Numbered from the stretch's first letter, positions 9,556 to 49,455 are shown. The stretch: DNA of 64,000 bases from Candidatus Omnitrophota bacterium (GCA_043817155.1 JBDRHE010000072.1:1345-65344); one strand, 5' to 3'. Notes: generated by a model from the sequence alone, not told the origin. Numbers and translations are program-made.

Positions 9556-9804
9556 CTCGTCTTTGCGAGGTGCCGTAAAGAGCTAGCGCACCGAAACCCC
9601 GCCGCATGCTTCGCATTGCGGGATCCCGCCATACGAAAGTAACGGCGGGACAATCTCTTACTTAACGGTTTGTCATCCCCGCGAAAGCGGGGATCCAGAG
9701 TAGCCTCGTAGAGAGTCTATCCATGGATTCCCGCTTGCGCGGGAATGACAGAGAAGAGATTGCTTCGGCACGTTCGAATATTCCGGTGCCTCGCAAAGAC
9801 GAAG
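9556..9804. repeat. Composite element: a family C copy (C2) split by a nested family B copy (B1, 9671-9750).
   Basis: C left end CTCGTCTTTGCGAGGTGCCGTAAAGAGCTAGCGCACCGAA at 9556-9598. B1 is TGTCATCCCCGCGAAAGCGGGGATCCAG...CTGGATTCCCGCTTGCGCGGGAATGACA. C right end GAGATTGCTTCGGCACGTTCGAATATTCCGGTGCCTCGCAAAGACGAAG at 9755-9804. Confidence 0.85.
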
Positions 9805-9846
9805 TGTAGCTTGTATGCCAATCTGTATTTTTAATAAATTAATCGT

Positions 9847-10941
9847 ATGAACATACTGCACTTGCTTCCCGCCCTTGAGTCGGGAGGCGTCGAGACCGGC
9901 ACGATCGATCTGGCGCTCTCACTTAAAAGACTGGGCCATACCGTTATTGTAGTTTCTAACGGCGGTCAACTTGTCAAAAGCCTGGAAGATAATAAGATAT
10001 CCCATATCAAGCTTCCGGTTCACAAAAAGTCACCATCCGCCATCCTGCTTATACCAAAGATCGTGAGCATCCTTAGATCGCACAACATAGATATCGTCCA
10101 TGCGAAAAGCCGTGTCCCGGCGTGGATAGGCTATTTATCCTGCAAAATATCCGGCACCCCTTTTGTCACAAGCTGCCACGGTTTTTATTCGAAACACTTC
10201 TTCAGTTCCGTTATGGGCCGAGGCCAGCGCGTGATGGTGATTTCAAGGAGCATAGAGATGAGGATGATAGAAGATTTCAAGGTGCCTGCGAGCCGGATCC
10301 GTCTTGTGTATAGAGGCGTGGACCTTTCTAAGTACCCTTACCAGCCTGATAAATATGAAAGCGAAAAGATCTCCTTTATCGTGATCAACATAGGCAGGCT
10401 GACGCCGCTCAAGGGCCAGCACAAATTTATAAAAGCGATGAAGCGTGTCGCCGAAGAGATAAGATCGGTCGAGGCCTGGATCGTGGGCGCGCCGGAAAGA
10501 GGTAAAGAACACTATGTAGAGAGACTGCACAGGGCGGTGCTGGAGCTCGGTATGGAGGGGAGTATAAAGTTTTTAGGTTTACGAAAGGATATCCCCGAGC
10601 TCTTAAAGAAGAGTGATTGCCTGGTGCTCTCTACGAATGTTCCCGAGGGATTCGGAAGGACTGTAGTTGAGGCGGGCGCTATAGGTACGGCTGTATGCGC
10701 ATCTGACGTAGGCGGCCTTAGGGAGATCATAACAGACGGTGTTTCGGGGATACTCTTTCCGCCGGATGACGAAGTTAAGATGGCAGAGGCCATCATAAGA
10801 ATGCTCAGCAGCCGGGATTTCTCGAAAGGCTGTTCAGAGAATCTGCGAAGAAGGGTGGAGAACGATTTTACACTTGAACGTATGACCAAAGAGACGCTTT
10901 CGGTTTACGAAGAGGTCGTGAAGGCCAGAGTACCCGCCTAA
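9847..10941 (+). CDS. Glycosyltransferase family 4 (GT1-type fold).
   Basis: 364 aa. C-terminal EGFG...E motif typical of retaining GT4 enzymes. Confidence 0.7.
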   Translation: MNILHLLPALESGGVETGTIDLALSLKRLGHTVIVVSNGGQLVKSLEDNKISHIKLPVHKKSPSAILLIPKIVSILRSHNIDIVHAKSRVPAWIGYLSCKISGTPFVTSCHGFYSKHFFSSVMGRGQRVMVISRSIEMRMIEDFKVPASRIRLVYRGVDLSKYPYQPDKYESEKISFIVINIGRLTPLKGQHKFIKAMKRVAEEIRSVEAWIVGAPERGKEHYVERLHRAVLELGMEGSIKFLGLRKDIPELLKKSDCLVLSTNVPEGFGRTVVEAGAIGTAVCASDVGGLREIITDGVSGILFPPDDEVKMAEAIIRMLSSRDFSKGCSENLRRRVENDFTLERMTKETLSVYEEVVKARVPA

Positions 10942-10980
10942 AGAGCTTTACTTGACGAAAAGATAAACGTGTGTTAGAGT

Positions 10981-11715
10981 ATGCCCATGCAGAAAGAGTC
11001 AAATAGTGGAGCCCCCCGGACTTTAGTCCTGGGCTCCCTCCATCAAAAACACATATCACCTGCCGCAGTCTGCGGACGGATTAAAATAGCGCCAAGTCTT
11101 CTGGCGGCCGATTTCGGATGCCTCGCTTCAGAGATTGATAAAGCTGAAAAAGCCGGGGCGGATTCGTTGCACGTCGATGTGATGGACGGGCACTTTGTGC
11201 CGAATATAACCCTTGGACCATTCATAGTAAAAGCGATGAGGAGAGTGACGAAGCTTCCATTGATCTCCCACCTTATGATCGAAAGCCCGGAGAAGTATAT
11301 TAAAGAATTCGTCGCGGCAGGAAGCGACATGATCATCTTCCATATAGAGACTACAAAGAGGCCAAAGATGCTTATAGAAAAGATAAAGCGGACTAAAACG
11401 AAGGTAGGGGTTTCGATCAAGCCCAATACGAAGGTCCGCGCCATAAGATCTCTTCTTCCGCTTCTCGATGAGGTGCTTGTTATGACCGTGGAGCCCGGAT
11501 TCGGTGGTCAGAAGTTTATGCATAAACAGCTTCCGAAGATACGGGATATCAGGGAGTCTTTCGCCGGAGACATAGCTGTCGACGGCGGGATAAACCAGGA
11601 GACCGCGGAGCTCGCTGTTTCAAAAGGCGCCAATATACTGATAGCCGGAACGTATCTCTTCGGTGCCAGGAACATGAAGAGCCTCATCCGCAAACTCAAA
11701 TCGATCAAACCCTAA
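10981..11715 (+). CDS. rpe: Ribulose-phosphate 3-epimerase.
   Basis: KIAPSLLAADF, HVDVMDGHFVPN and EPGFGGQKF motifs. The only ATGs (10981, 10987) lie upstream of and read through family A copy A2, giving a ~28-aa N-terminal extension. Confidence 0.8.
   Translation: MPMQKESNSGAPRTLVLGSLHQKHISPAAVCGRIKIAPSLLAADFGCLASEIDKAEKAGADSLHVDVMDGHFVPNITLGPFIVKAMRRVTKLPLISHLMIESPEKYIKEFVAAGSDMIIFHIETTKRPKMLIEKIKRTKTKVGVSIKPNTKVRAIRSLLPLLDEVLVMTVEPGFGGQKFMHKQLPKIRDIRESFAGDIAVDGGINQETAELAVSKGANILIAGTYLFGARNMKSLIRKLKSIKP
11006..11060. repeat. Family A element, partial copy A2 (hairpin 3 plus spacer), in reverse orientation.
   Basis: GTGGAGCCCCCCGGACTTTAGTCCTGGGCTCCCTCCATCAAAAACACATATCACC. Confidence 0.8.
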
Positions 11716-12521
11716 TTGGGGACGTTTCAACTTTCCTCAACCTCGTTCAAGCAAGCTAGCTAGAGAGGCCAAGCGCATTTTTACAAATTCCATCATAATC
11801 TGGTTTAACTCCGATTGCTCGTGTGGGGCAATTCTTCCGCTTGCCCCGTTCCAAATCGCCCTATAAAGGCATTTGGATAAAGAAGATGTTCTTTGCGCAG
11901 AATACTTTTGCAATAGCTAAAAGTTCTAGTGGGCGATTTGTAACGGGGCAAGCCGCCGGTCTATTGCAGTTAGCTGTTGGTAATTCGCTAGCCAGCGCAG
12001 GCCAAGCGGTCCGGGAGGCTTAAGCATAAAAGATTATGCAGAGATTCTCTCTTCTTGCCTCTTCATAAGGTGATAGCCGGTCTTTAAGGAAATGCCGTAA
12101 GCCAAGACATACGTATGCCTGAACTACCGACTCTCACCTTGTAAAGAGACAAAGAGAGAATATGCGCCTCCCGAACCGCTTGGCCCGCGCAAGTTTTGAG
12201 ACGATTCTTTGCACTCAAGTTGCTCCAGCTTAGGTTTATGGGCGAGAGATAGGGTGGTTATCGGAGAATTACCTTGGAGTAATCTTTTGCCTGCACTGGA
12301 GCCCCTTAGCCTGGGCTTACTTTGCAAAGTTAAGAAATGGCGGAATCATTACCCGAAACCCCCTATTTTTTGCTTTTTCGGTTATATCTTAATCAGGTTG
12401 CAAATGCTTCTTTTAAGAACGAACGAACTTTATGGTTGACATTTATGGGGTAGTCAGCTTTAATAGTCGTCGAGGTTTAAGAAGATGAGGAATCTATATG
12501 TTATTTCTATCACTTAAATAT

Positions 12522-12624
12522 GAGTAAGTAGAGAGTAGCAAGTAGCGAGCCCCGTTAGAAATTTACAATTTCTAACGGGGCGAGAAAGACTCTCTCTACT
12601 CTCTACCTGCTACTCGCTACTTAC
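12522..12624. repeat. Long imperfect palindrome (~100 bp, 14-bp perfect core stem) immediately upstream of mnmG.
   Basis: GAGTAAGTAGAGAGTAGCAAGTAGCGAGCCCCGTTAGAAATT-TAC-AATTTCTAACGGGGCGAGAAAGACTCTCTACTCTCTACCTGCTACTCGCTACTTAC. Confidence 0.75.
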
Positions 12625-12651
12625 TGGCATTTGTAAAAAAGAATATAATAC

Positions 12652-14532
12652 ATGTTTTCAAATTGTAAAAGAGAATTCGATGTAATAGTCGTAGGCGGTG
12701 GCCACGCCGGATGCGAGGCGTCACTCGCAAGCGCGCGTCTTGGTTCAAAGACTCTTCTTATCACACAGAAGATCGATAGGATCGGTTTCATGTCCTGCAA
12801 TCCTGCCATAGGCGGTATCGGGAAGGGGCAGCTGGTAAAAGAGGTCGATGCCCTGGGTGGTGAGATGGGAAGGGCTATAGACGCCTCCATGATACAATTT
12901 CGCATGTTAAATTCTTCCAAAGGCTACGCCGCCAGGTCCTCGCGCGCTCAAGCCGATCGGGCCATATATAACAGATTCATGCGAGAACGTGTTCTAGGAC
13001 AGGGTGGGCTGGAAGTCTTAGAGGATGAGGTTGTAGGGATCTCTGTTAAAAATGGCGTCTGCAAAGGTGTAAAAACCGGGCAATCAGGCGAGATGAACTC
13101 CACCGCCGTCATTTTGACACCCGGGACATTTCTGAATGGTGTTATACACATAGGGCTTGAGCATTTTAAAGGCGGAAGGATCGGTGAAGACGCGTCTCTG
13201 GGGTTGTCAGAGAGTCTTGCTGATCTCGGTTTCAAAATATTGACTTTGAAGACCGGTACCACTCCCCGCATAGACGGAAGAACAATAGACTTTTCAAAGT
13301 TGGTGGCGCAGCACGGGGATAGAGAGATAATACCATTCTCGTTCTGGACGAAGAAGATAGACATAGACCAGAAGCCGTGTTTCATAACGCGTACGAATTC
13401 TGAAACGCATAAGGTGATACAGGAGAATCTGGACCGCTCTCCTCTCTATACCGGTAAGATAAAGTCTACAGGGGTTAGATACTGTCCGTCCATAGAAGAC
13501 AAGATAGTCAGGTTCCCCGGGAGACCGTCGCATACGATCTTTCTCGAACCCGAAGGTTGGGATACCGACGATTACTATCCAAACGGGATTTCAACGAGCC
13601 TTCCGAGAGACGCACAGGAGAGGATGGTTCATAGCATAGAGGGTCTGGAAGAAGCGAAGATACTTACTCCGGGATACGGGATAGAATACGATATGGTCGA
13701 TCCAACGAGCCTGAAGCCGACGCTGGAGACTAAAACCGTCAAAGGTCTCTTTCTTGCCGGCCAGATCAACGGAACGACCGGATACGAAGAGGCCGCAAGT
13801 CTAGGGCTTATGGCCGGCATTAATGCCGCAAGGACCATCGGGGGAGAGCCTCCTGTTATTCTCGACAGGTCAGAGGCGTATATAGGTGTTCTAATAGATG
13901 ATCTTGTTACTAAGGGCACGAGCGAGCCGTATCGGATGTTTACCTCCCGGGTAGAATACAGACTGACTGTAAGAGAGGATAACGCTGCGCTAAGATTGAG
14001 TAAGACGGGCCTGTCGATCGGACTTCTGCCGGATAAAAGTTTTCAGGAAGTTATGAAGAGAGAGAAGAAGGTAGGTGAGATCAAGAAGAGACTGAAGGCA
14101 AAGAAAATATATCCGACAAAAGAGATAAATAGTATTCTGGAAGAGAGATTTTCTCAAAGTCCTTTAAAGAATCCAATCAGCCTGGCCGGCCTTCTAAAGA
14201 GGCCCGGTCTATCAATCGAAAACGTGATGGAACTTGCGGCCTGGAAAGATCCTGTGTCTTATTACGAGAAGATCCGGATAGAAGTCGATATCAAATATGA
14301 GGGCTACATCAAGAGGGAGAACGCTTATATAAAGAAGTTTAAGGGTTTGGAGAAGATAAGTATTCCCGAAGATTTCAACTATTCGGATGTAATCGGGCTA
14401 TCGAGTGAGATAAAGGAGAAACTGACAAGCCTTAAACCCCGCTCACTCGGACAAGCAACACGTGTCTCAGGCGTGACCCCGGTAGCGATAACTGTTTTGA
14501 TGATTAAACTACATAGCCGGAATATGAAGTAA
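12652..14532 (+). CDS. mnmG: tRNA uridine 5-carboxymethylaminomethyl modification enzyme MnmG (GidA).
   Basis: N-terminal FAD-binding motif [14 protein letters not shown] and the full-length GidA architecture (626 aa). Confidence 0.9.
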
Positions 14533-14592
14533 ATTACAAATCACAAATTCCCTGCCTGCTGCTGCAAGCGGGCAGGCAAATAACAAACATCT

Positions 14593-14682
14593 TGTCATTC
14601 CCGCGCAAGCGGGAATCCAGACGGAAATGACAAACATATTAGGAAGATAGACTTCTGGATCCCCGCTTTCGCGGGGATGACA
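14593..14682. repeat. Family B element with 27-bp terminal inverted repeats, copy B2.
   Basis: TGTCATTCCCGCGCAAGCGGGAATCCAG...CTGGATCCCCGCTTTCGCGGGGATGACA. Confidence 0.85.
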
Positions 14683-14768
14683 AAATATTAGTTTTAAACA
14701 TTGTAATTTTGATATTGTATATTGTTTGTGCTTTGTGTATTGTATATTGTGATTTAGCGAGGGATTGC

Positions 14769-16251: not shown

Positions 16252-16282
16252 CCGGGGCTTAAGCCCCGGCTACTGCTTTTTG
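16243..16282 (+). terminator. Rho-independent terminator.
   Basis: Perfect 18-bp palindromic stem AAGCAGTAGCCGGGGCTT/AAGCCCCGGCTACTGCTT followed by TTTTT. It overlaps the stop codon of the LOG-family gene. Confidence 0.8.
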
Positions 16283-16320
16283 AAGCTCTTAATAGGTCCG
16301 TTCAACAGTTTGTCATTCCC

Positions 16321-16407
16321 GCGAAAGCGGGAATCCAGTCATGCCACAATGCATTAGAAAGAATACACTTCTGGATCCCCGCTTGCGCGGGGATGACATG
16401 ACTTTAT
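16321..16407. repeat. Family B element, copy B3.
   Basis: TGTCATTCCCGCGAAAGCGGGAATCCAG...CTGGATCCCCGCTTGCGCGGGGATGACA. Confidence 0.85.
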
Positions 16408-23946: not shown

Positions 23947-24026
23947 TGTCATCCCCGCGCAAGCGGGGATCCAGAGCGGACACGTAGATAGTTAATCCAT
24001 GGATTCCCGCTTTCGCGGGAATGACA
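23947..24026. repeat. Family B element, copy B4.
   Basis: TGTCATCCCCGCGCAAGCGGGGATCCAG...ATGGATTCCCGCTTTCGCGGGAATGACA. Its right end supplies ATG codons at 24021 and 24026. Confidence 0.85.
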
Positions 24027-24061
24027 TGTGGGAAGATGCCAAGGGACAAATAGAGGTCTCA

Positions 24062-27282: not shown

Positions 27283-27393
27283 GAATTTCGCAAAGCGAAA
27301 TTCATTGCTTGGCGAGATGCTAAGCATCTCACCAAAGGTGATATGTGTTTTTGATGGAGGGAGCCCACCGGACTTTAGCCCGGGGGGCTCCAC
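27283..27393. repeat. Family A three-hairpin element, full copy A3.
   Basis: GAATTTCGCAAAGCGAAATTC / TTGGCGAGATGCTAAGCATCTCACCAA / GGTGATATGTGTTTTTGATGG / GGAGCCCACCGGACTTTAGCCCGGGGGGCTCCAC. Confidence 0.85.
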
Positions 27394-29785: not shown

Positions 29786-29885
29786 TGTCATTCCCGGACC
29801 GCTGCTGCGGTCTAAACTCCAGCGGGAATCCATGGATGCACTCTCTACGAGTCCGCTCTGGATCCCCGCTTTCGCGGGGATGACA
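29786..29885. repeat. Family B element, copy B5 (long-left-arm subtype).
   Basis: TGTCATTCCCGGACCGCTGCTGCGGTCTAAACTCCAGCGGGAATCCATGG...CTGGATCCCCGCTTTCGCGGGGATGACA. Same subtype as copy B8. Confidence 0.85.
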
Positions 29886-30819: not shown

Positions 30820-33800
30820 ATGTCGAGAATAGTTGCTCAATCAGCAATAAGAGGCGCGAAGAAGCTTGTACAGGAAGCCGAGGGGCTACTGGGCAAGGCG
30901 ATCGAAGAGAAGGGCAAGGAACAGATACTGGAATTCCCGGAGACGGCTTTCTTCATGCCGATGGCCAATGCCCTACTGGGGGCCGAGGTCAAGACTCTAA
31001 ATGAAGCATTGCCCATAATAAAAGAGGCCAAATCGCTTTTGCACGAAGATCCGACTAACGATCTATGGCTTCCTTATCTTGGTAGCGCGCTGGATTCCGG
31101 AATCGCGGCTTTGCTGGCAGAGGAGATTATTCTGGCTATACGCTACATTTATGGCAAAGAGCCTCAGGCCGATTGTAACGGCTTTTTTACGGATACGATA
31201 CTGCGCACTTTAGGAATACAACTCGTAGATGGCAGGATGCCTGGCTTTGCCGCGATACTTGGGGCTGCTCCGGACAATAAGACCGCGGTAGATATCGTAA
31301 GGGACTTTCAGAAGAGAAACATAATGACTTTTGTAGGCTCAAGCTCAAATGGTAAGAGCATCATAGACCAGCTTAAAGAAGAGAAGATCGAGATGGGATG
31401 GGATACTTATATAGTACCTTATGGCAGGGATACCGTATCTGCGCTCTATCCGTTGAACTGGGCCATAAGAGGAGCGCTTACTTTTGGCGGGATCAAGGCC
31501 GGGAATGCAAAGAAATGCTTAATGTATTGCAAAGAGAGGGTCTTTGCTTTCGGATTAACTCTCGGAGAGGTCGATGATGTTAAGTACGCTACCGGTGCGG
31601 GAGCAATAAACATGGGATTTCCTATAATAGCCGATACCGAGATACCGGAGATCAGGCCAACAGGTATATGCACGTATGAACATCTTGTAAAAGAACTTGA
31701 TCATAAGAAGATAGTTCAAAGCTGCATTGAGGTAAGGGGTGTTAAGGTGAAGCTTTCCGAGATACCGATACCCGTTGCATATAGCGCTGCTTTTGAAGGG
31801 GAGAGAGTAAGGCGCGAACAGATGTATGCGCAATTCGGAGGGAAGTTCTCACACGCGTTCGAATACGTTCGCTCTAAATCTCTTGATGAGGTAGAAGATG
31901 ATAAGATAGAGGTCGTCGGGCCGGAGATAGATGAAATGACCGAAGGAGGGGCCTATCCTCTCGGTATAGTGGTGGATGTCGCAGGAAGAAAGATGCAGCA
32001 CGATTTTGAACCTATACTGGAAAGGCAGGTGCATACCTTCTTAAATGAAGCTATGGGCATATTCCATATGGGTCAGAGAAGTATGTGCTGGATGAGGATC
32101 TCTAAAGACGCGCAGAAGAAAGGCTTTAAGCTGAGGCACCTGGGCGTGATCCTCCATGCGCAATTTCACGATATCTACTCTAAGATCGTTGACAAAGTCC
32201 AGATCACCATCTACACGAAGAAAGAGGATGTCGATAGGATAATGCCTGAAGCTGAAAAGGTATATGAAGAGCGTGATGAGCGTATGGCCGGTATGACGGA
32301 TGAGAGCATCGACACGTTTTACAGCTGCACGCTTTGTCAGAGTTTTGCGCCGAATCACCTTTGCATAATAAAGCCCGAGAGACTCGGTCTCTGCGGGGCT
32401 TATAGCTGGCTCGATGCGAAGGCATGTTACGAATTGAATCCGTCAGGACCGAATCAGCCCATCAAAAAAGGCGAATGTCTGGACCCGGTCCGGGGTGAAT
32501 GGAAGAATATAAACGATTTTATATATAAGAGTTCTAATAAGACGCTTGAGAAGTTCCACGGATATTCGATCATGAGCTACCCGGAAACAAGTTGTTGCAC
32601 CGGTGATACAGAGGTGTTGATAGGTGGAAAGATCGTAAAGATCGGTGATTTTATAGACCTTCATAGGGGTGGGGAGGAGTATGCCAGATTTAAGGCAGCA
32701 ACCTTGAGCGGTGGCAAAACCGTAGAAGAGGATATCGTTGCTATGCAAAGATTTACGGCTCCGGAAGAGTTGATAAGGATTGAAACAAAATCGGGCGCAG
32801 AACTTGTATTGACAAAGGATCATAAGGTCTTTGTTGATAGGCAGGAAGGGGAAGCTCAGGTTAGGGCAGATGAGATAAGAGATGAGGATAGAATCGTATC
32901 GCTTAAGAGACTGAATCTAAAAGAGGAGTTGCCTGAGATATCCGAAATATTCGGGGGGCGTTTAAACGAGGATATTTCAAATGAGATTATAAACAAGGAT
33001 CTCTTTTATATATTGGGACTCCTTGCTTCCGACGGTTCGATATGCAGAGTGGGAAGAAGGGAATACAAGATCAATTTTATCAACACCGAACCGGCGTTGA
33101 TTAATAAGTATAAGAGGCTCGCTAAAAAATTATTTCCAAAAAAGAACTGCAAAGCCCGCATTAAGAACAAAAATCTCTCCACAATAAAAGGACGTATTAT
33201 AAATTCTCAGAAGGTATGCTACGATTGTTATTCGAACAATAGCGTTTTGGGAATGATTGCAGAGTATTTTGGTATAAAAGTTGGCATTAAAGGGGTATGG
33301 AATTTGGCACAATTGATTAATCTTCCAAAGGACTTCATCGGTTCTTTTTTGGCCGGCATCTTCGACGGCGATGGAAGCATAAGATTGAGAAGATACTATT
33401 CCAAGTGGGATATCCCCGAAGCCTATCTCTGTATCGGGGATAAGAAAGCAGCATCTCACCTTCAGATGCTATTGCGAAGATTTGGCATAACAAGTTTTGT
33501 AAAGAAGTCCAATTCGGTTTACAAGGTGACTTTATACGGAACGAACCTAATTAAATTCCTGGATATTGCACCCATTGTTCATCCAAAGAAGAAGAAAATA
33601 TCGGAAAGAGTCAAGAAATTATCAAAAGCGAATAAAGGTCCTGACAGGGCACAGGGAGAGGTTCTGCCTTTTGGAGTAGGCAAAATTTTGGCAGAAATCC
33701 CTGAAACGAAAACAATACTTAGCCCTAGCACACTTTTCTATTATAGAACATTCAGATCTAGACCCGTGCTTTCCAATGTAAATAAGGTGATTGACGGATT

Positions 33801-34374
33801 GCCAAACGATAAGGCGCAAATCCTAAAAGATGCTATTGACACCGATTACTTTTTGGACATTGTTTCAAAGGTTAGAACAATAAAGAATAACGGGAGATTT
33901 GATTATGTGTACAATTTAACCCTTTCCGATACCCATAGTTATTATGCGAATGGAATGCATATTGCAAATTGCGGATGTTTTGAATGTATAATCGCGATTC
34001 TGCCTGAAGCGAACGGATTCATGGTGGTGAACAGGGAGTTTCCCGGGCTTACGCCTGCGGGGATGAAATTCTCTACGCTCGCAGGGTCCGTTGGCGGCGG
34101 AAATCAGACTCCCGGATTCATGGGTGTAGGAAGGCTTTATATAATCAGTAAAAAGTTCATATCCGCTGATGGCGGATTAAAGAGGCTGGTCTGGATGCCG
34201 AAGGAACTTAAAAGTGCTCTCGGTGACAGGCTAAAGAAGAGGTGCGCGGATCTCGGCATGCCGGATCTATTTGATAAGATAGCCGATGAGACTAACGCAA
34301 CTGAATCGGAAGCATTGGTAAAATATTTAACCGAGAAGGGCCATCCGGCCATTACGATGGAACCGTTAATGTGA
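30820..34374 (+). CDS. acsB: Acetyl-CoA synthase catalytic subunit (AcsB/CdhC) interrupted by an in-frame intein.
   Basis: 1184 aa, against about 730 aa for AcsB. The extein ends ...SYPETSC and resumes CGCFECIIAILPE (the A-cluster Cys-Gly-Cys Ni site). The intervening 458 aa has intein blocks. Confidence 0.9.
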   Translation: MSRIVAQSAIRGAKKLVQEAEGLLGKAIEEKGKEQILEFPETAFFMPMANALLGAEVKTLNEALPIIKEAKSLLHEDPTNDLWLPYLGSALDSGIAALLAEEIILAIRYIYGKEPQADCNGFFTDTILRTLGIQLVDGRMPGFAAILGAAPDNKTAVDIVRDFQKRNIMTFVGSSSNGKSIIDQLKEEKIEMGWDTYIVPYGRDTVSALYPLNWAIRGALTFGGIKAGNAKKCLMYCKERVFAFGLTLGEVDDVKYATGAGAINMGFPIIADTEIPEIRPTGICTYEHLVKELDHKKIVQSCIEVRGVKVKLSEIPIPVAYSAAFEGERVRREQMYAQFGGKFSHAFEYVRSKSLDEVEDDKIEVVGPEIDEMTEGGAYPLGIVVDVAGRKMQHDFEPILERQVHTFLNEAMGIFHMGQRSMCWMRISKDAQKKGFKLRHLGVILHAQFHDIYSKIVDKVQITIYTKKEDVDRIMPEAEKVYEERDERMAGMTDESIDTFYSCTLCQSFAPNHLCIIKPERLGLCGAYSWLDAKACYELNPSGPNQPIKKGECLDPVRGEWKNINDFIYKSSNKTLEKFHGYSIMSYPETSCCTGDTEVLIGGKIVKIGDFIDLHRGGEEYARFKAATLSGGKTVEEDIVAMQRFTAPEELIRIETKSGAELVLTKDHKVFVDRQEGEAQVRADEIRDEDRIVSLKRLNLKEELPEISEIFGGRLNEDISNEIINKDLFYILGLLASDGSICRVGRREYKINFINTEPALINKYKRLAKKLFPKKNCKARIKNKNLSTIKGRIINSQKVCYDCYSNNSVLGMIAEYFGIKVGIKGVWNLAQLINLPKDFIGSFLAGIFDGDGSIRLRRYYSKWDIPEAYLCIGDKKAASHLQMLLRRFGITSFVKKSNSVYKVTLYGTNLIKFLDIAPIVHPKKKKISERVKKLSKANKGPDRAQGEVLPFGVGKILAEIPETKTILSPSTLFYYRTFRSRPVLSNVNKVIDGLPNDKAQILKDAIDTDYFLDIVSKVRTIKNNGRFDYVYNLTLSDTHSYYANGMHIANCGCFECIIAILPEANGFMVVNREFPGLTPAGMKFSTLAGSVGGGNQTPGFMGVGRLYIISKKFISADGGLKRLVWMPKELKSALGDRLKKRCADLGMPDLFDKIADETNATESEALVKYLTEKGHPAITMEPLM
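32596..33969 (+). mobile_element. Intein (458 aa) with a LAGLIDADG homing endonuclease domain, inserted in acsB.
   Basis: Block A CTGDTEVLIGG. Block B LTKDHKVFV. Two LAGLIDADG motifs (LGLLASDGSI, LAGIFDGDGSI). Block G YYANGMHIAN, followed by the +1 Cys of the CGCFEC motif. Confidence 0.85.
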
Positions 34375-34478: not shown

Positions 34479-34613
34479 TGTCATTCCCGCGCAAGCGGGA
34501 ATCCATGGATGTACTCTCGACGAGTCCGCTCTGGATCCCCGCTTACGCGGGGATGACAAAAGATGAGATTGCTTCGGCGCGCTAAGAAGAATAAGGCGCC
34601 TCGCAAAGACGAT
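34479..34613. repeat. Family B copy B6 (34479-34558) abutting a family C right-end fragment C3 (34563-34613).
   Basis: B6: TGTCATTCCCGCGCAAGCGGGAATCCATGG...CTGGATCCCCGCTTACGCGGGGATGACA. C3: GAGATTGCTTCGGCGCGC...GGCGCCTCGCAAAGACGATG. Confidence 0.8.
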
Positions 34614-34641
34614 GTAACTTAAAAAAAAGGAGAGTCAAGAA

Positions 34642-35988: not shown

Positions 35989-36128
35989 AATTCCAGTCCC
36001 GGCCTGGATTATAGAGGTTTGCCTAGACAGGCCGGGACTGGAATGCAGATCGCGTACGGATAGAATCAGGACATTCAGGTCCCGGGCTTTCTAGGACAAC
36101 CTCTTTTATCAAGCCCGGGACCTGAATG
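35989..36128. repeat. Two tandem family D hairpins (D3a 35989-36045, D3b 36072-36128).
   Basis: CAATTCCAGTCCCGGCCTG-GATTATAGAGGTTTGCCTAGA-CAGGCCGGGACTGGAATG and CATTCAGGTCCCGGGCTT-TCTAGGACAACCTCTTTTATC-AAGCCCGGGACCTGAATG. The second loop is the reverse complement of the first loop type. Confidence 0.85.
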
Positions 36129-36141: not shown

Positions 36142-38085
36142 ATGGAGAAGTTCAAAGTTACATTTAAACCGGGCAACAAGATTGCCGAAGCAAAGAAGGG
36201 CGCGGATCTTCTTTCGGCCGCGGTCTCTTGCGGTGTATTCATAAATTCAAGTTGCGGCGGTGAAGGTGTTTGCGGAAGGTGCAAAGTCGTGATCAAGAAG
36301 GGCGACTTTAAGACCGAGCCTACCGGGAGGGTGTTACCGGAAGAGAGAAAGAAAGGCGTTGTCCTTGCGTGTCTTACGACGGTCGAAGGAGACCTCGAAG
36401 TATTTGTTCCGAAGGAATCCAGGCTCGATCTTGGTAAGATCAAGGATGAGGACGCAAGGCTTCATAGACTAAAGGGCGTATATTCCGAAGCGGTCGAGAT
36501 CGATAAAGGAAGGCCGATCATAAACGAAGACCTGTTTACCCATAGCCCGATATCGACAAAGATCTATACGGAGCTCCCGCAACCGACACTGGATGACAGC
36601 GTAAGTGATTATGAAAGATTGATAAGGGAGATAAAGGAGAAGCACAACGTACCTGTCGTACAGACGGGCCTAAGAAACATAAGAAAGCTTGGCAGCCTAC
36701 TTCGTCATAGCGATTGGAAGGTTACAGCGACCCTCGGCAAGAGGAACGAAACTACCGAGGTTGTGATAATCGAGCCGGGGGATACTTCAAAAGAGAATTA
36801 TGGCATCGCTTTTGATATAGGCACGACTACGGTTTCGGGGCAGCTTGTGAACCTGAATACCAAAGAGGTTCTTGGCACAAAGGCTACCTATAACAAACAG
36901 ATAGTCTTTGGCGACGATGTGATCACGCGGATAGTATTTGCAACCGAAGAGAGCGGCCTTGAACGTTTGCACCACGCTGTTATCGATAACATGAATTCTA
37001 TTATTCATGAATTGATCACTGAGCATAACATACCGTTAAACTGGGTAACGGGCGTTGTATGCGCCGGAAATACTACAATGATGCATCTCCTGCTTCGCGT
37101 GGACCCCACTCATATAAGGAGAGAACCCTATGTATCAACTGCGAATTTTGTACCGGTCGTAAGATCCGCGGAGGTCGGTATTAAAGTTCACCCCAGGGGG
37201 CTGCTTGCTTGTATACCGGGGGTTAGTACCTATGTCGGAGGCGATATAGTTGCCGGTGTAGTGGCCTGTGGCATTAATAGGAGTGAACAACTTACACTGC
37301 TTATAGATATCGGTACAAACGGTGAGATGGCGCTTGGCAATAAAGAATGGATGGCATGCTGTTCAGCGAGCGCAGGACCGGCTTTTGAAGGCACCGGGGT
37401 TTCGTGTGGGATGAGGGCAATGGATGGCGCGATAGAGAAAGTCGAGATTGGTTCTGATCTTGAATCAAGGACCCGGACCATTAAGAACGCAAAGCCAATG
37501 GGGATTTGCGGTTCAGGATATATATCGCTCATCTCCGAGATGTTTAAAAGAAAGATCATAAAGCGGGATGGCAAATTGAACGACGATCTTAAAACAGAGC
37601 GCATCAGGGTGTCGAATGATGAGCTTGAATACGTGGTCGTCTTTAAGAAGGATGCGTGCTGTGATTATGACATCGTGATCAAGGAGTCCGATATTGAAAA
37701 TATTAAAAGGTCAAAAGGCGCGATCTATTCAGCGGCATACATACTGGTTAAAAAGTTCGATCTGACTTTTGACCAGATCGATAAGGTATATATCGCAGGT
37801 GGATTTGGGACGTTTCTCGATATAGATTGCGCTGTATCCATAGGACTTTTACCGGATATCGAGAGAGGTAAATTCCAATTTGTAGGAAACAGCTCTCTAA
37901 TAGGATCGAGAGAGATCCTGCTGTCTTATGATACAATGAAGAAGGCCGAAGAGATCGCCAGGAAGATGACATATATCGAGCTTAGCAAGGACCCCGGCTA
38001 CATGGATGAATATGTTTCGAGCCTCTTCTTCCCGCATACGGACCTCGAACGGTTTCCGAGCGTGAAGAAGGGAAGATCTGCTTGA
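36142..38085 (+). CDS. Reductive activator of the corrinoid iron-sulfur protein (RACo/AcsV). 2Fe-2S ferredoxin domain plus ASKHA ATPase.
   Basis: N-terminal CGGEGVCGRCKV plant-type ferredoxin motif and an FDIGTTTV ASKHA phosphate-1 motif. 647 aa. Confidence 0.8.
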   Translation: MEKFKVTFKPGNKIAEAKKGADLLSAAVSCGVFINSSCGGEGVCGRCKVVIKKGDFKTEPTGRVLPEERKKGVVLACLTTVEGDLEVFVPKESRLDLGKIKDEDARLHRLKGVYSEAVEIDKGRPIINEDLFTHSPISTKIYTELPQPTLDDSVSDYERLIREIKEKHNVPVVQTGLRNIRKLGSLLRHSDWKVTATLGKRNETTEVVIIEPGDTSKENYGIAFDIGTTTVSGQLVNLNTKEVLGTKATYNKQIVFGDDVITRIVFATEESGLERLHHAVIDNMNSIIHELITEHNIPLNWVTGVVCAGNTTMMHLLLRVDPTHIRREPYVSTANFVPVVRSAEVGIKVHPRGLLACIPGVSTYVGGDIVAGVVACGINRSEQLTLLIDIGTNGEMALGNKEWMACCSASAGPAFEGTGVSCGMRAMDGAIEKVEIGSDLESRTRTIKNAKPMGICGSGYISLISEMFKRKIIKRDGKLNDDLKTERIRVSNDELEYVVVFKKDACCDYDIVIKESDIENIKRSKGAIYSAAYILVKKFDLTFDQIDKVYIAGGFGTFLDIDCAVSIGLLPDIERGKFQFVGNSSLIGSREILLSYDTMKKAEEIARKMTYIELSKDPGYMDEYVSSLFFPHTDLERFPSVKKGRSA

Positions 38086-38124: not shown

Positions 38125-38214
38125 GTCATTCCCGTGTTTTCCCACATGTCATCCCCGCGTAAGCGGGGATCCAGACGAGGCCCACCATGGATTCCCGCTT
38201 CCGCGGGAATGACA
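38125..38214. repeat. Family B element, copy B7, with a partial duplicated left end.
   Basis: GTGTCATTCCCGTGTTTTCCCACA + TGTCATCCCCGCGTAAGCGGGGATCCAG...ATGGATTCCCGCTTCCGCGGGAATGACA. Confidence 0.85.
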
Positions 38215-41284: not shown

Positions 41285-41312
41285 AGGGAGCGCCAGAGCA
41301 CTTGTTTCTTCT

Positions 41313-41487
41313 CTCGTCTTTGCGAGGTGCCGTAAAAAGCTAGCGCACCGAAGCAATCTCCGACTAGCTCGAATGAGATTGCCTGCCTGCCCGCCAAAGC
41401 TTTTAAATGGCAGGCGGGCCTGCCAGTATATTTCGGGCAGGCAGGCTTCGGCACACTCGAATCTTACGGTGCCTCGCAAAGACGAAG
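41313..41487. repeat. Family C element, full copy C4.
   Basis: CTCGTCTTTGCGAGGTGCCGTAAAAAGCTAGCGCACCGAAGCAATCTC...GATTGCCTGCCTGCCCG...GGCAGGCGGGCC...CGGGCAGGCAGGCTTCGGCACACTCGAATCTTACGGTGCCTCGCAAAGACGAAG. Confidence 0.85.
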
Positions 41488-41513
41488 TAACTTTAAACGC
41501 GAGAGTAAAAACC

Positions 41514-42806: not shown

Positions 42807-42844
42807 GGACAGACTAACCAGAGCACCGGAGTAATTGGCTCTCT

Positions 42845-42984
42845 CCTCGTCTTTGCGAGGTGCCGTAACATAGTTAGCGCACCGAAGCAATCTCAGACTA
42901 GCTCGAATGAGATTGCCTGCCTGCCCGTATATTTCGGGCAGGCAGGCTTCGGCACGCTCGAATTTTACGGTGCCTCGCAAAGAC
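42845..42984. repeat. Family C element, copy C5.
   Basis: CCTCGTCTTTGCGAGGTGCCGTAACATAGTTAGCGCACCGAAGCAATCTCAGACTAGCTCGAATGAGATTGCCTGCCTGCCCGTATATTTCGGGCAGGCAGGCTTCGGCACGCTCGAATTTTACGGTGCCTCGCAAAGAC. Confidence 0.85.
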
Positions 42985-43024
42985 ATGTGTACTAACTTGA
43001 GCGATAAGGAGTAAAAAACAGATT

Positions 43025-44131: not shown

Positions 44132-44187
44132 GCATCTAAAATTAACAGCTTGGATTTTAAAATCACTACTGATTAAAATACCCTTTT

Positions 44188-44276
44188 TGTCATTCCCGGA
44201 CCGATCTTGCGGTCTAAACTCCAGCGGGAATCCATAGTGGGGCTCGCCTGGATCCCCGCTTCCGCGGGGATGACAT
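44188..44276. repeat. Family B element, copy B8 (long-left-arm subtype).
   Basis: TGTCATTCCCGGACCGATCTTGCGGTCTAAACTCCAGCGGGAATCCATAG...CTGGATCCCCGCTTCCGCGGGGATGACA. Confidence 0.85.
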
Positions 44277-44403
44277 GTGGGACAGAGCGGGCATGATAGG
44301 AATTCGTATATCAGAATACTATTTCCGTCTTTACAGTGCTATTAATTTAAACACGAGTGTTATAAAGTATCAATTTAATTTTTCTATTTTTAGGAGGTAA
44401 AAA

Positions 44404-45390: not shown

Positions 45391-45393
45391 TAA

Positions 45394-45471
45394 TTGATTA
45401 CACTGATTTATTATTGATTACACGGATTGGGGAATTGATTACACTGATTTAATATTGATTACACTGATTGA
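45394..45471 (+). repeat. Tandem direct-repeat array E1: four copies of TTGATTACAC(T/G)GATT with a 20-21-bp period.
   Basis: Units at 45394, 45414, 45435 and 45455. Begins 4 nt after the hldD stop and ends 18 nt before the ATG of the flavodoxin-like gene. Confidence 0.85.
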
Positions 45472-45488
45472 TAAGGCTAGAGGTTGAG

Positions 45489-46049: not shown

Positions 46050-46383
46050 CTCTCTTTTTTTACCCGAACCGTCAACCTAATCATATATGGTAGTTGACAA
46101 TATGATTACGCCAAATAAAATAAAGACCGATTCATCCGCCTTCGCAGGAAATCTCGGCTTTGATCGGGAAGGAATGCGGCAGTCCTGCTTCGGCGCGATG
46201 TCCGCCAATACTATCGGAAAGGCGAGACCTTGCCATAGCCTAAAAGGCGAAGGCAGGTCGCCCTTAAAATTGAAGGCGGATGCCGTGCCGACTTGTCCGC
46301 CGAAGCTGAACGTGAATACAATTCAGCGAAGGCGGGCAACAACAAGGCATTCCGGACTTGCCCGGTGGGCTCCACTCCTTAAA

Positions 46384-47268
46384 GTGCCTCTAACAGAGCT
46401 TATCTCCCGTGCCAATACTGTGAGGAAAAGAAAAGTAGGAAATAAGCTCGAGCTCTGTAGCATCGTAAGCGCCAAGTCCGGACTTTGCAACGAAGACTGC
46501 AAGTTCTGCGCTCAATCGTCTCGTCACAAAACAAAAGTGCCAACGTATTCACTTAAGAGTTCAGGCGAGATGATCGAAGCGGCAATCGAGGCCAGAAGAA
46601 ACGGCGCATCCAGGTTCGGGATCGTTACAAGCGGGAATCGTTTAACATCTTGTGAACTTAAGACCATAGCGCAAGCGATCTCCGAGATCAGGAAAAGGAT
46701 CGGTATAGCGGTTTGCGGTTCACTGGGGGCCCTGGGATTCGATGAGCTGACAATGCTTAAAAGCGCCGGGCTTACCAGGTACCATCATAACATAGAGACT
46801 TCACGGCGTTTCTATCGCAAGATCGTGTCGACCCATAGCTTTGAGGAGCGTATAGATACTATAAAGGGCGCGAAACTCGCGGGACTCGAAATATGCTCAG
46901 GTGGCATAATAGGGATGGGTGAGACATGGCAGGACAGGATAGATATGGCCTATCTTCTAAAGTATCTCGATGTAGATTCGGTGCCTTTGAATATTCTCGT
47001 GCCGATAAAAGGCACACCCCTTGAGTCTGTAAAACCCATCTCACCTGCCGATGTTATAAGGACGATCTGTATATTCAGAATAATTTTAGGTGATAAGATA
47101 ATAAAGATAGCCGCGGGCAGGGAGACTGTGCTTAAAGATCTTCAGGCCATGGGTTTTATGGCAGGGGCAAATGGTATGTTGATAGGCGGATACCTTACTA
47201 TCAAAGGCAGGAGCCTTGAAGAGGACCGGCTGCTTGCAAGAGAGATAAAGATATTATGGAAAGAGTAG
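46384..47268 (+). CDS. bioB: Biotin synthase.
   Basis: CNEDCKFCAQS radical SAM motif. Start at GTG 46384 chosen by homology to the canonical N-terminus. The track ORF extends about 100 codons upstream through a repeat-rich region. Confidence 0.8.
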   Translation: MPLTELISRANTVRKRKVGNKLELCSIVSAKSGLCNEDCKFCAQSSRHKTKVPTYSLKSSGEMIEAAIEARRNGASRFGIVTSGNRLTSCELKTIAQAISEIRKRIGIAVCGSLGALGFDELTMLKSAGLTRYHHNIETSRRFYRKIVSTHSFEERIDTIKGAKLAGLEICSGGIIGMGETWQDRIDMAYLLKYLDVDSVPLNILVPIKGTPLESVKPISPADVIRTICIFRIILGDKIIKIAAGRETVLKDLQAMGFMAGANGMLIGGYLTIKGRSLEEDRLLAREIKILWKE

Positions 47269-48404
47269 AGAAACTATTAAAAGAGCGAAAAGCAAAAGGC
47301 CTTTTAAGGAGACTTGAACCCCTGAGTAAGAGAGGTAGGGGTAGGATCCGTCTTCAAGAGAGAGACTACCTGGACTTCTCTTCGAATGACTATTTAGGAC
47401 TTACAAATCACCCACGGCTTATCGAGGCTGCCGTAAAGGCCACTCAGGCCTGGGGGACGGGTTCGTCGGCGTCACGTCTTTTAAGCGGAGACCTCAATAT
47501 TCACCACGATCTGGAATCGAAAGTAGCCGCGTTCAAGGGCAAAGAGGCGGCGCTCGTATTCAATTCCGGGTATCAGGCCAATGTGGGGATAATAAGCGCT
47601 ATTGTCGGAAGAGGAGACGCCATATTTTCTGACAGACTGAACCATGCAAGTATAATTGATGGAGCCCTTCTCTCCGGCGCCAAATTATTCAGATACAGGC
47701 ACAATGACGTAAATCATCTGGAATCTTTGCTAAAGAGGGAGAGAGACAAATTCAAAGGAGTCCTTATATTGACCGAATCGGTCTTCAGTATGGATGGGGA
47801 TCGAGCCCCCCTGAAGGAGATCGCTCTTCTTAAGGAGAGATTTGGGTCTCTTTTGATGGTGGACGAGGCGCATGCAACGGGCATCTTTGGCGCAAGCGGC
47901 GCCGGTATGGTGGAAGAAGAGGGCATGATAGACAAGGTCGATCTTATAATGGGTACGTTCAGTAAAGCGCTTGGTAGTTTCGGTGGCTACATAGCATGCG
48001 ATCGGCGCATTAAGGAGTACCTGGTCAATTTTTCAAGAAGTTTTATCTATTCTACAGCGTTACCACCGTCTGTGATAGCGGTAAACTCAGCGAGCATAGA
48101 TTTAATAAAGGAGGAACCTTTTAGGAGAGATAGATTGATCGAAAATAGTATCTATTTTCGAAAAGGACTGGTAGGGCGTGGCTTCTGTGTGCGTGGCGAT
48201 TCCGAGATCGTTCCGGTTATCCTGGGGGGAGCCTTACGGGCCGTTAACCTAAGCAAAGCATTACAAGAATCCGGATATCACGTTCTTCCTATAAGGCCGC
48301 CAACCGTTCCCACAGGGGAGTCGAGACTCAGATTTTCACTAAATTTCGATCATACGAAGGAGATTTTGGACAGAGTGATCGATGCTATTGTAGGGGGCAT
48401 TTAA
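47256..48404 (+). CDS. bioF: 8-amino-7-oxononanoate synthase.
   Basis: PLP-dependent AOS family with an SKALGSFGG lysine motif. Start overlaps the bioB end. Confidence 0.85.
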   Translation: MERVEKLLKERKAKGLLRRLEPLSKRGRGRIRLQERDYLDFSSNDYLGLTNHPRLIEAAVKATQAWGTGSSASRLLSGDLNIHHDLESKVAAFKGKEAALVFNSGYQANVGIISAIVGRGDAIFSDRLNHASIIDGALLSGAKLFRYRHNDVNHLESLLKRERDKFKGVLILTESVFSMDGDRAPLKEIALLKERFGSLLMVDEAHATGIFGASGAGMVEEEGMIDKVDLIMGTFSKALGSFGGYIACDRRIKEYLVNFSRSFIYSTALPPSVIAVNSASIDLIKEEPFRRDRLIENSIYFRKGLVGRGFCVRGDSEIVPVILGGALRAVNLSKALQESGYHVLPIRPPTVPTGESRLRFSLNFDHTKEILDRVIDAIVGGI

Positions 48405-48539
48405 GCCCCGGGCTTAGATTATGAAGGTTGTTGTGAAAAGCCCGGGGCTTAAATGCAGACTAAAGTAGATGCGGACAAAGGCCATTCAGGTCCCGGGCTT
48501 TCTTGGTAAACCACTTTATTCAAGCCCGGGACCTGAATG
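48398..48539. repeat. Two tandem family D hairpins (D4a 48398-48455, overlapping the bioF stop codon; D4b 48484-48539).
   Basis: CATTTAAGCCCCGGGCTT-AGATTATGAAGGTTGTTGTGAAA-AGCCCGGGGCTTAAATG and CATTCAGGTCCCGGGCTT-TCTTGGTAAACCACTTTATTC-AAGCCCGGGACCTGAATG. Confidence 0.85.
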
Positions 48540-48620
48540 GGATAAGCCCGGCGAAACAATCTGACGAAATCCGTCGGATTACGTTTGTGTATTAGAAATT
48601 ATGAGTTAACGATATAAAAG

Positions 48621-49301
48621 ATGCAGACAGGATTTAAGTATATAGATAGAAATAAGAAGCGGACGATGGTACTGGTACCGGGATGGGCAACAGACCACAG
48701 GATATTTGATTTTCTTGATATCGATTTTAACTATCTATTGCCTACGCTCTGCTACCCGAGAGACTTTGAAACCGAACTATTAAATGCGTTGCGGGAATAT
48801 AAACTCGAAAAGGTATCGATTCTCGGGTTTTCGATGGGTGGATTCGTATCCGCGAAGTTTGCGGCAAGACATGCCGGTCTTATCGAAACTCTCATCTTCG
48901 TCGGTATACGCCGCAGGTTTAGGACCGATAAGATCGAGGAGATAAGAGGGCTTCTTCTGAAGAATAAAAGAGCGTTCTTGTACAAATTCTATCTTGAATG
49001 TTTTGCGGGGAAAGAGAGTCTTATGTTGTTTAAGAGAACCTTCCTTAAAAGTTACTGCGAAGAGATGGAGATAGACCATCTATTAATGACCCTCGATTAC
49101 CTGAAGAGTGCCGAGATCGAGCCCGAAACGCTTCTTGGCATAAAGAGTATTAAGATCATCCACGGGGAAGAAGATAAGATCGCGCCTCTTAATGAAGCTA
49201 ATTGGATAAGGGAGAGGTTGCCTAAAGCAGAGTTTATTGCATTGAAAGGCGAGGGACACATTCCGTTCTTAAATAAGGAGTTCAGTAAGTCGATATGGTA
49301 G
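48621..49301 (+). CDS. Alpha/beta hydrolase, candidate pimeloyl-ACP methyl ester esterase (BioH-like).
   Basis: GFSMGG nucleophile elbow. Located inside the biotin operon between bioF and bioC. Confidence 0.55.
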   Translation: MQTGFKYIDRNKKRTMVLVPGWATDHRIFDFLDIDFNYLLPTLCYPRDFETELLNALREYKLEKVSILGFSMGGFVSAKFAARHAGLIETLIFVGIRRRFRTDKIEEIRGLLLKNKRAFLYKFYLECFAGKESLMLFKRTFLKSYCEEMEIDHLLMTLDYLKSAEIEPETLLGIKSIKIIHGEEDKIAPLNEANWIRERLPKAEFIALKGEGHIPFLNKEFSKSIW

Positions 49302-49386
49302 ATCAGTCGTGTCCAAATGAGTTGTACCATATCGACGGAAATAGCGTTTTGACATTCGAAACTTTGCCATGACCGCTTTTCTCACA

Positions 49387-49455
49387 TGTCATCCCCGCGC
49401 AAGCGGGGATCCAGGCGAGAGTTTCGTCTGGATTCCCGCTTCCGCGGAAATGACA
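49387..49455. repeat. Family B element, copy B9.
   Basis: TGTCATCCCCGCGCAAGCGGGGATCCAGG...CTGGATTCCCGCTTCCGCGGAAATGACA. Confidence 0.85.

Follow-up and report, generated by a model that had tools for sequence, protein, structure and literature searches.

The window analyzed here, i.e. the whole stretch of 64,000 nucleotides from Candidatus Omnitrophota bacterium (GCA_043817155.1 JBDRHE010000072.1:1345-65344), harbors 18 copies of a 28-nt hairpin unit, TGTCATYCCCGCGNAAGCGGGRATCCAK, referred to below as the arm, which form nine inverted doublets, all of them intergenic. Judged by their sequence, the arms are a new member, in Omnitrophota, of the published family comprising the Neisseria Transformation Sequence (NTS) and the more degenerate “Ssn-related motif” (SRM), a family already described under three names. 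In the reading that we favor, and regard as reasonably probable, the doublet arms are NTS/SRM hairpins that would be recognized as single-stranded DNA (ssDNA) by Ssn, a GIY-YIG protein of about 95 amino acids (aa; cd10448), with the doublet being a gene-less miniature of a unit in which an ssn gene is flanked by two arms (arm-ssn-arm).

Architecture of the Doublets

A search of the window for TGTCATYCCCGCGMAAGCGGGRATCCAG with up to three mismatches returned 16 matches, as compared with none in each of 100 dinucleotide-preserving shuffles, which rules out a chance origin of the arms; the remaining two of the 18 are long-loop variants. With this pair included, the nine elements that an earlier reading of the DNA (hereafter the sequence-only reading) had listed are real, including the long-arm variant it noted in the copies at 29786 and 44188. 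Several of its dimensions have to be revised, however: the arm measures 28 rather than 27 nt, the arms are 12–34 and not 25–50 nt apart, the whole element is 68–100 rather than 80–100 bp long, the third copy begins at 16311 instead of 16321, and what had been taken as a copy starting at 38125 is a truncated half-arm, with the doublet proper following it (Table 1).

In each doublet the two 28-nt units stand inverted to one another with their TGTCAT ends facing outward. As DNA, a single arm folds by itself, as the sequence-only reading had claimed, into an 8-bp stem capped by a 4-nt GNAA-type loop (−9 to −10 kcal/mol, z about −5), and the whole doublet folds into one long hairpin of −20 to −29 kcal/mol, far below shuffled controls. 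Every doublet combines one “C” arm (CATCCCCGCG..CGGGGATCCAG) with one “T” arm (CATTCCCGCG..CGGGAATCCAK), and Y and R change together so as to keep a base pair in 15 of 16 standard-length arms; only the arm that ends at 49455 (TGTCATTTCCGCGGAAGCGGGAATCCAG) departs from this. The two long-loop arms have a second small hairpin plus TAAACTCCAG in place of the 4-nt apical loop. The flanks TGTCAT and CCAG, which are non-palindromic and give the hairpin its orientation, are invariant in the C arms, and a pyrimidine is found two positions before TGTCAT in 18 of 18 arms. At three arm ends the flank ATGACA followed by TGTGGGA(A/C) recurs (24027–24034, 44276–44283 and, inverted, 38139–38146; CTCACA is found at 49381–49386), so that in a subgroup of arms the conservation extends a further 7 nt outward (YCCCACA ahead of TGTCAT).

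The genes of the window, which belongs to a contig of 76,331 bp (protein accessions MFH1594251 to MFH1594309 at NCBI), lie nearly all on the + strand and include glgC, mnmG, and purH; the Wood-Ljungdahl pathway is represented by its folate branch and by the carbon monoxide dehydrogenase/acetyl-CoA synthase (CODH/ACS) genes. With true start codons applied, every one of the 18 arms lies between genes, and the genes that flank them are co-directional and form long operons. The sequence-only reading had proposed that several copies donate in-frame ATGs or N-terminal extensions to downstream genes, namely cooC and bioC; these turn out to be longest-open-reading-frame artifacts, with the true starts lying past the elements. 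The start of cooC is placed by ortholog alignment at TTG 24062, 36 nt downstream of the element, its apparent extension MDSRFRGND being a translated arm, and the methyltransferase domain of the bioC-like product is complete from ATG 49476, by which real N-terminal extensions of the two proteins are rejected. More generally, the arms explain the recurrent spurious N-terminal extensions of the “MDSRFRGND / VIPAKAGIQ” type in annotation.

The placement of all 18 arms between co-directional genes of long operons suits an alternative in which they are host-serving REP-like elements without a dedicated enzyme, spread by recombination, whose hairpins act in RNA or DNA between the genes of an operon, e.g. 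in mRNA 3′-end protection, processing, attenuation, or binding of nucleoid proteins or gyrase. The GNAA-type tetraloops, which would be stable in RNA, and the strong constraint on the arms as opposed to the drift of the spacers (see below) agree with such a role. Yet none of the arms coincides with a terminator-like site, and their stems are not followed by a T-run, which rejects the arms as intrinsic terminators, and an Rfam search of the window gave 0 matches at the gathering score, which rejects them as a known RNA family. Relative to transcription, the doublets also run either way, four starting with the C arm and five with the T arm, and the non-palindromic flanks (TGTCAT, CCAG) are conserved as much as the stem, as fits oriented recognition of one strand by a protein; moreover, near-identity of the arm across phyla and phages is left unexplained by a host function. 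We therefore regard this explanation as decidedly unlikely as the origin of the doublets, although a host-serving role could coexist with recognition by Ssn.

Identity and Distribution of the Arm

The 28-nt NTS was defined by Chenal et al. (Nat Commun 2025, PMC11893778) with the consensus CGTCATTCCCGCGMAVGCGGGAATCYRG, in which the classical dRS3 repeat, ATTCCC-N8-GGGAAT, is embedded, together with the degenerate SRM, HGTCWYN(0-2)YYVSBRHN(0-5)WNVSBRGN(0-2)RNCYNB (PMC11893778). SsnA, a 94-aa single-domain GIY-YIG protein (cd10448), binds the NTS hairpin only as ssDNA and cuts it a few nucleotides 5′ of GTCAT, leaving the complementary strand uncut, and recognition by Ssn depends on sequence as well as structure, in the palindrome and also in its flanks (PMC11893778). 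The ssn genes are typically flanked by the motif, and in N. meningitidis the Ssn system reduces integration of motif-carrying transforming DNA; binding and cutting have been shown for the Neisseria, N. elongata, N. wadsworthii, and Wolbachia homologs only (PMC11893778). The same paper mentions neither REPINs, nor RAYTs by that name, nor doublets (PMC11893778).

Relative to the Neisseria NTS consensus, the T arms of the window show 1–3 mismatches and the C arms 3–4, with the long-loop arms being unalignable. Two T arms differ by a single mismatch (T for C at position 1), which is the number the authors allowed, so that only 2 of the 18 arms fall within the strict Neisseria definition. An exact dRS3 sequence is present in six arms, all of them T arms, the C arms carrying ATCCCC..GGGGAT, and the published SRM pattern matches 14 of the 18; the two long-loop arms and the arms at 38187–38214 and 49428–49455 are missed, and one further SRM match, within a gene at 36570, is probably due to chance.

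The distribution of the arm is wide. Its 26-nt core, GTCATYCCCGCGNAAGCGGGRATCCA, occurs exactly in at least 120 reference-genome stretches from many phyla (one genome per species was scanned), and among the matches listed the record titles name Alpha-, Beta-, and Gammaproteobacteria, “Deltaproteobacteria”/Desulfobacterota, Bacteroidetes, Chloroflexota, Planctomycetota, Omnitrophota, several Patescibacteria lineages, Gemmatimonadota, Acidobacteriota, Nitrospirota, Elusimicrobia, Latescibacterota, Zixiibacteriota, Hydrogenedentota, Armatimonadota, Binatia, Vampirovibrionales, and a Rickettsia endosymbiont. As the core is exact across many phyla, the arm is not a species-private REP, and a REP family private to this genome is rejected. 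The 26-nt arm is likewise exact in at least 120 viral contigs of IMG/VR (L123–L242; e.g. L151, L169, and L137/L157/L172), and phages are a plausible vehicle for its spread across phyla. Some of the viral contigs have the arm adjoining phage tail-tube, capsid, portal, and S49 protease genes. Among 120 such genome loci, adjacent arms less than 150 bp apart form 81 outward-facing pairs as against 14 inward-facing ones, and other phyla, too, frequently show heterotypic pairs, in which an ATTCCC arm is combined with an A(T/C)CCCC arm.

Arm Pairs Enclosing ssn

Seven ssn loci were read by eye: L048, from an Omnitrophota metagenome-assembled genome (MAG), L090, L091, L245, and the viral L152, L153, and L206. 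In each of them a forward arm lies 13–25 nt ahead of the ssn ATG and a reverse arm lies behind the gene, and in L152 and L245 these are a T-type and a C-type arm, respectively. Outward-facing arm pairs 150–3000 bp apart enclose ssn in four of eight cases, and pairs in other orientations in 0 of 83. Clustering of the open reading frames (ORFs) over the 120 genome loci returned abundant paralogs (ABC ATPases, sensor kinases) and one small recurrent family, which is the GIY-YIG ssn. Scanning of metagenome contigs with an Ssn alignment provided 80 further independent ssn loci. Of 79 of these, 60 have a forward arm upstream of the gene and 9 a reverse one; of 77, 61 have a reverse arm downstream and 16 a forward one. 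In 50 of 76, ssn is flanked on either side by the arm expected there, with the GTCAT ends outward. The long-loop arm subtype, with the design GTCATTCCYG, a hairpin, and then TAAACTYCRGC(G/A)GGAATC, is also present in four ssn loci (L272, L274, L291, and L292) and in viral contig L190. Taken by their layout, the doublets of the window look like ORF-less versions of the arm-ssn-arm unit.

The Ssn family is a very large one, of unusually high conservation: a protein search with Ssn gave at least 7,978 matches at E ≤ 1e-10, of which, among the matches listed, the top ones are 68–80% identical to the query. The few named homologs among those listed belong to unrelated lineages (a Wildermuthbacteria MAG and a Deltaproteobacteria MAG), and many of the homologs are found on contigs shorter than 1 kb, a pattern to be expected if a repeated or mobile gene causes assemblies to break. 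One Ssn protein found on 13 contigs was checked for multiple genomic contexts and proved to be a single locus from different samples only.

A different enzyme partner is envisaged if the doublets are REPINs copied by a Y1 (HUH) REP-associated tyrosine transposase (RAYT) encoded once elsewhere in the genome, and it was in this direction, to a TnpA-REP of the IS200/IS605 type, that the sequence-only reading had pointed. All nine doublets have REPIN geometry, with two inverted units less than 130 bp apart in one long hairpin, and carry no target duplications; in addition, ATTCCCGCGCAGGCGGGAATC is the Neisseria REPIN seed, and REPINs decay where the Group 2 RAYT is frameshifted (Bertels et al., bioRxiv 10.1101/2021.07.10.451892), a published correlation that speaks for such a pairing. 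Within 2.08 Mb of arm-bearing loci, however, there were 0 RAYT-like ORFs (HUH plus YxxNP), and no transposase family recurs in the clustering of the 120 genome loci or among 149 ORFs adjoining arms, for which the 25 commonest Pfam families are shown, so that a single RAYT could hide; in the window itself, no RAYT was found with a home-made, unvalidated consensus query. It is ssn, and not a RAYT, that sits between outward-facing arms, and it is the only gene that recurs there. Furthermore, the arm has no 5′ GTAG-type tetranucleotide, which is reportedly typical of REPs, at the usual REP position, and RAYT-REP pairs are usually lineage-specific, whereas the arm is nearly identical across phyla. 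Copying of the doublets by a RAYT thus appears unlikely to us, with Ssn being the better supported partner.

Insertion and Copying of Whole Doublets

Four contigs of syntenic Omnitrophota relatives (L121, L122, L243, and L244; ~87 kb) were compared with the window. The nearest relatives in the databases have an MnmG that is 70% and a RACo that is 83% identical, with no strain-level relatives present there. Neither the arms described here nor those of a second hairpin repeat of the window (family A, see below) were found in these ~87 kb. At six of the nine doublet sites the relatives’ genes overlap or are separated by at most 33 bp, and a seventh, longer junction is motif-free, so that the check for empty sites suggested by the sequence-only reading comes out positive at 7 of 9 sites (Table 1). 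The doublets at 29786 and 49387 have no comparable junction in the relatives, with gene content differing at 29786. Two doublets, those at 9671 and 34479, are nested in the spacers of family-A doublets, at a similar place and in opposite orientations. The comparison with the relatives shows the doublets as apparent newcomers: it was as whole units, and with no duplication of the target, that they were inserted between genes in this lineage.

Target-site duplications, for which the sequence-only reading had proposed to look, are indeed absent at nine of nine copies, where flanking direct repeats amount to 0–1 nt. Terminal inverted repeats are present and duplications are not, which rejects a classical miniature inverted-repeat transposable element (MITE) with target-site duplications. 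Their absence does not speak against mobility, since elements of this kind are not expected to make them.

Insertion into empty sites also bears on the notion that the arms are passive landing pads, i.e. attachment or target sites for insertion sequences of the IS110/IS1111 type or for filamentous-phage recombinases that use dRS3. In Neisseria, dRS3 is reported as a phage recombinase target, and arms are also found in phage contigs. No insertion sequence or prophage, on the other hand, interrupts or adjoins any of the nine doublets, and neither the arrival of 18 arms at sites that are empty in relatives nor the existence of paired units with shared spacers is explained in this way, which leaves landing pads as a highly improbable account.

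The doublets fall into three subfamilies by spacer (i, n = 4; ii, n = 2; iii, n = 3). All nine are C/T heterotypic, for which the chance under random pairing at equal frequencies is about (1/2)^9, and independent landing of the arms is therefore unlikely. Together with the subfamily-specific spacers, this arm pairing supports the view that whole doublets were copied as units. Over 27 non-loop positions the nine C arms are identical, and divergence among the T arms amounts to 3% of positions, as compared with 20% for the 24-nt spacers of subfamily i; the only freely varying arm position, 14, in the loop, with all four bases in the window, is also variable (M) in the NTS consensus. No decayed arms were found in the window in a search with up to 8 substitutions. 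The arms are thus held constant, either by selection for recognition or by a homogenizing process, which fits the published reading by Ssn of both sequence and structure of the palindrome and its flanks.

Since the spacers have drifted by about 20% while the arms are invariant, the copies are not recent twins, and a recent burst of identical copies is rejected. The sequence-only reading had described a non-autonomous transposable-element or REP family that is active or recently so; of this, the REP/REPIN/MITE-like character and the intergenic insertion stand, whereas recent activity is not supported.

Proposed Model of Ssn Action

In the model that we propose, an Ssn encoded elsewhere in this genome would act on the arms in trans. 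Each strand of a doublet, read 5′ to 3′, starts with an arm in the cleavable orientation, and because of this Ssn would nick both strands of the doublet, the predicted nicks coinciding exactly with the outer edges of the conserved sequence on either side. Such nicking, in extruded or replicative ssDNA and with repair or annealing by the host as the next step, could lead to the doublet being copied to new sites, and the same cleavage would process any incoming or exposed ssDNA that carries doublets, as in Neisseria transformation.

It has to be noted that several points weigh against this model. In the 64-kb window, no ssn was found with a home-made GIY-YIG consensus query, although the same query found real genes elsewhere, and we know of no GIY-YIG protein of the Ssn family for which strand transfer, joining, or transposition has been shown. 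The activity shown so far for Ssn is nicking of ssDNA (PMC11893778), and copying is not accounted for by one nick per strand alone. The C arms are 3–4 positions off the NTS consensus, and the Ssn substrates shown so far do not include C arms. In Neisseria, this sequence has been interpreted as a REPIN population belonging to a Group 2 RAYT (bioRxiv 10.1101/2021.07.10.451892), and the count of 0 HUH plus YxxNP ORFs was obtained with a home-made motif test. On the side of sampling, the genome and viral loci were selected for carrying an exact match to the arm, and the arms of the metagenomic ssn loci were detected with a home-made hairpin finder of our own, upstream within 130 nt. Finally, the empty sites were seen at 70–83% protein identity only, even if loss in the relatives is unlikely.

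A bolder version of the model, which we put forward as a tentative possibility and consider rather doubtful, holds that the doublets would be non-autonomous copies of a mobile unit with ssn as its only gene, and that Ssn would be the nuclease of an unrecognized class of ssDNA-based transposable elements (not DDE, HUH, serine, or tyrosine) that has spread a nearly identical 26-nt end through many phyla and phages; the C/T pairing and the border-precise nicks would then correspond to left and right ends. If Ssn does move these elements, this would imply a new transposition chemistry, and if it does not, the doublets, with their C, T, and long-loop arms, would still be a useful natural collection of Ssn substrates for the proposed ssDNA-cutting tools based on such enzymes. 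No later work on the mobility of Ssn turned up in a literature search. Either way, one arm sequence currently bears three labels (dRS3, NTS/SRM, and REPIN) and has two proposed partner enzymes, and Omnitrophota, a phylum known mainly from MAGs, presents the family here in a clean form, as gene-less doublets only.

Comparison with Other Repeat Systems

The closest likeness is to the NTS/SRM-Ssn system, with which the window elements share the same oriented 28-nt hairpin composed of GTCAT, the ATTCCCGCG..CGCGGGAAT palindrome with its variable loop, and CCAG, as well as an almost wholly intergenic location, a density in the style of hundreds per genome, a wide phylogenetic spread, and, in many loci, the arm-ssn-arm layout. 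They differ from it in that the arms of the window are strictly gene-less C/T inverted doublets, an arrangement undescribed in Chenal et al. (PMC11893778), that the host is an Omnitrophota MAG, that the C arm (CATCCCC..GGGGATC) departs from the NTS at 3–4 positions, and that the window is without ssn.

With dRS3 and the Neisseria intergenic mosaic elements (NIMEs) the doublets have in common the exact ATTCCC-N8-GGGAAT of six T arms, the bracketing of short variable segments by the arms, and the formation of mosaics with other repeats, which in the window are the doublets within family-A doublets; the phylum is another one, however, the spacer sequence is unrelated, and instead of surface-antigen genes it is Wood-Ljungdahl genes that the repeats punctuate. 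The REPIN/RAYT system (Bertels and Rainey) is similar in that an inverted hairpin doublet, folding into one long hairpin, replicates non-autonomously as a unit without target duplication, and dissimilar in that no RAYT was found near arms in the loci examined, the arm is shared across phyla, and the gene between arms is a GIY-YIG and not a Y1 one. In E. coli REP/BIME, too, two slightly different hairpin types (Y/Z there, C/T in the window) alternate in inverted orientation in the intergenic regions of operons, but the sequence is unrelated, and neither the distribution nor the proposed enzyme partner is the same. MITEs such as the Correia elements of Neisseria are likewise short, gene-less, and intergenic, with terminal inverted repeats, whereas the window elements are without target-site duplications and their arms fold into hairpins of their own instead of being simple transposase-binding ends; we also know of no DDE transposase parent for them.

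Other Repeats and Genes in the Window

Table 1. Doublets and further features of the window, with the corresponding gene junctions in syntenic relatives
Feature	Position	Structure	Location	Junction in relatives
Doublet, subfamily i	9671–9750	C arm 9671–9698 (+), 24-nt spacer, T arm 9723–9750 (−)	between glgC and GT4 glycosyltransferase gene, within family-A doublet spacer (A arms ~9559, 9785–9800)	33 bp in L121, 22 bp in L122; no motif
Doublet, subfamily ii	14593–14682	T arm 14593–14620 (+), 34-nt spacer, C arm 14655–14682 (−)	between mnmG and radical-SAM gene mnmL/ytqA	genes overlap or abut
Doublet, subfamily ii	16311–16398	T arm 16311–16338 (+), 32-nt spacer, C arm 16371–16398 (−)	between LOG-family gene and purH	272–430 bp, motif-free
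Doublet, subfamily i	23947–24026	C arm 23947–23974 (+), 24-nt spacer, T arm 23999–24026 (−)	4 nt past folD stop; ends 36 nt before true cooC start (TTG 24062)	folD and cooC overlap by 4 bp in L121, L243, L244
Doublet, subfamily i	29786–29885	long-loop T arm 29786–29833 (+; apical loop replaced by GACCGC..GCGGTC hairpin plus TAAACTCCAG), 24-nt spacer, C arm 29858–29885 (−)	between NuoF-like gene and HoxU/NuoG-like hydrogenase subunit gene	
Doublet, subfamily i	34479–34558	T arm 34479–34506 (+), 24-nt spacer, C arm 34531–34558 (−)	between acsB and cdhD, within degenerate family-A doublet (A arm 34561–34625)	12–15 bp in L243, L244
Truncated extra T half-arm	38125–38146	GTCATTCCCGTGTTTTCCCACA (+)	abuts the 38147 doublet	
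Doublet, subfamily iii	38147–38214	C arm 38147–38174 (+), 12-nt spacer, T arm 38187–38214 (−)	between RACo gene and second cooC-like gene (cooC2)	overlap or 4 bp in L243, L244
Doublet, subfamily iii	44188–44275	long-loop T arm 44188–44235 (+), 12-nt spacer, C arm 44248–44275 (−)	between DRTGG/AAA_26 gene and epimerase gene	9 bp in L243, L244
Doublet, subfamily iii	49387–49455	C arm 49387–49414 (+), 13-nt spacer, T-like arm 49428–49455 (−), one stem mismatch	between alpha/beta-hydrolase gene and bioC-like methyltransferase gene	
Family-A sites	1132–1251, 9556–9600, 9752–9807, 34561–34625, 41313–41490, 42841–42999, 52427–52585	CGTCTTTGCGAGGTGCC, ~13-nt loop, GCACCGAAGCAATCTC		
Third small hairpin	41380–41450, 42905–42950, 52490–52535; similar sequence near 14553–14580	GCCTGCCTGCCCG-TATATTT-CGGGCAGGCAGGC		
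acsB (AcsB/CdhC)	30820–34374	1184 aa		
~100-nt repeat	2436–2539, 27283–27386, 60486–60545, 11003–11033	GCATCTCGCCAAAGGTGATATCTGTTTTTGATGGAGG....CCCGGACTTTAATCCGGGG		
61-nt long hairpin	36068–36128, 48479–48539	AGGACATTCAGGTCCCGGGCTT...AAGCCCGGGACCTGAATG	intergenic	
Tandem short repeats	45392–45470, 53096–53133	GATTACAC(T/G)GAT	upstream of genes	

The second hairpin repeat, family A, forms outward-facing inverted doublets of its own. It has the GTCWY...ATC outline of the SRM, with a loop longer than the published SRM pattern allows, and may be the substrate of a second Ssn paralog. A third small hairpin is inserted in the second arm of three family-A doublets and, because it lies within family-A arms, there are three levels of nesting among the repeats.

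The beta subunit of acetyl-CoA synthase (AcsB/CdhC) has 1184 aa as against the 725 aa found in relatives, and as the extra part matches intein splicing and LAGLIDADG domains, acsB carries an intein with a homing-endonuclease domain. Minor repeats of the window comprise a ~100-nt repeat in three to four copies of 86–91% identity and a 61-nt long hairpin in two copies that are 89% identical. The tandem short repeats based on GATTACAC(T/G)GAT could constitute an array of binding sites.

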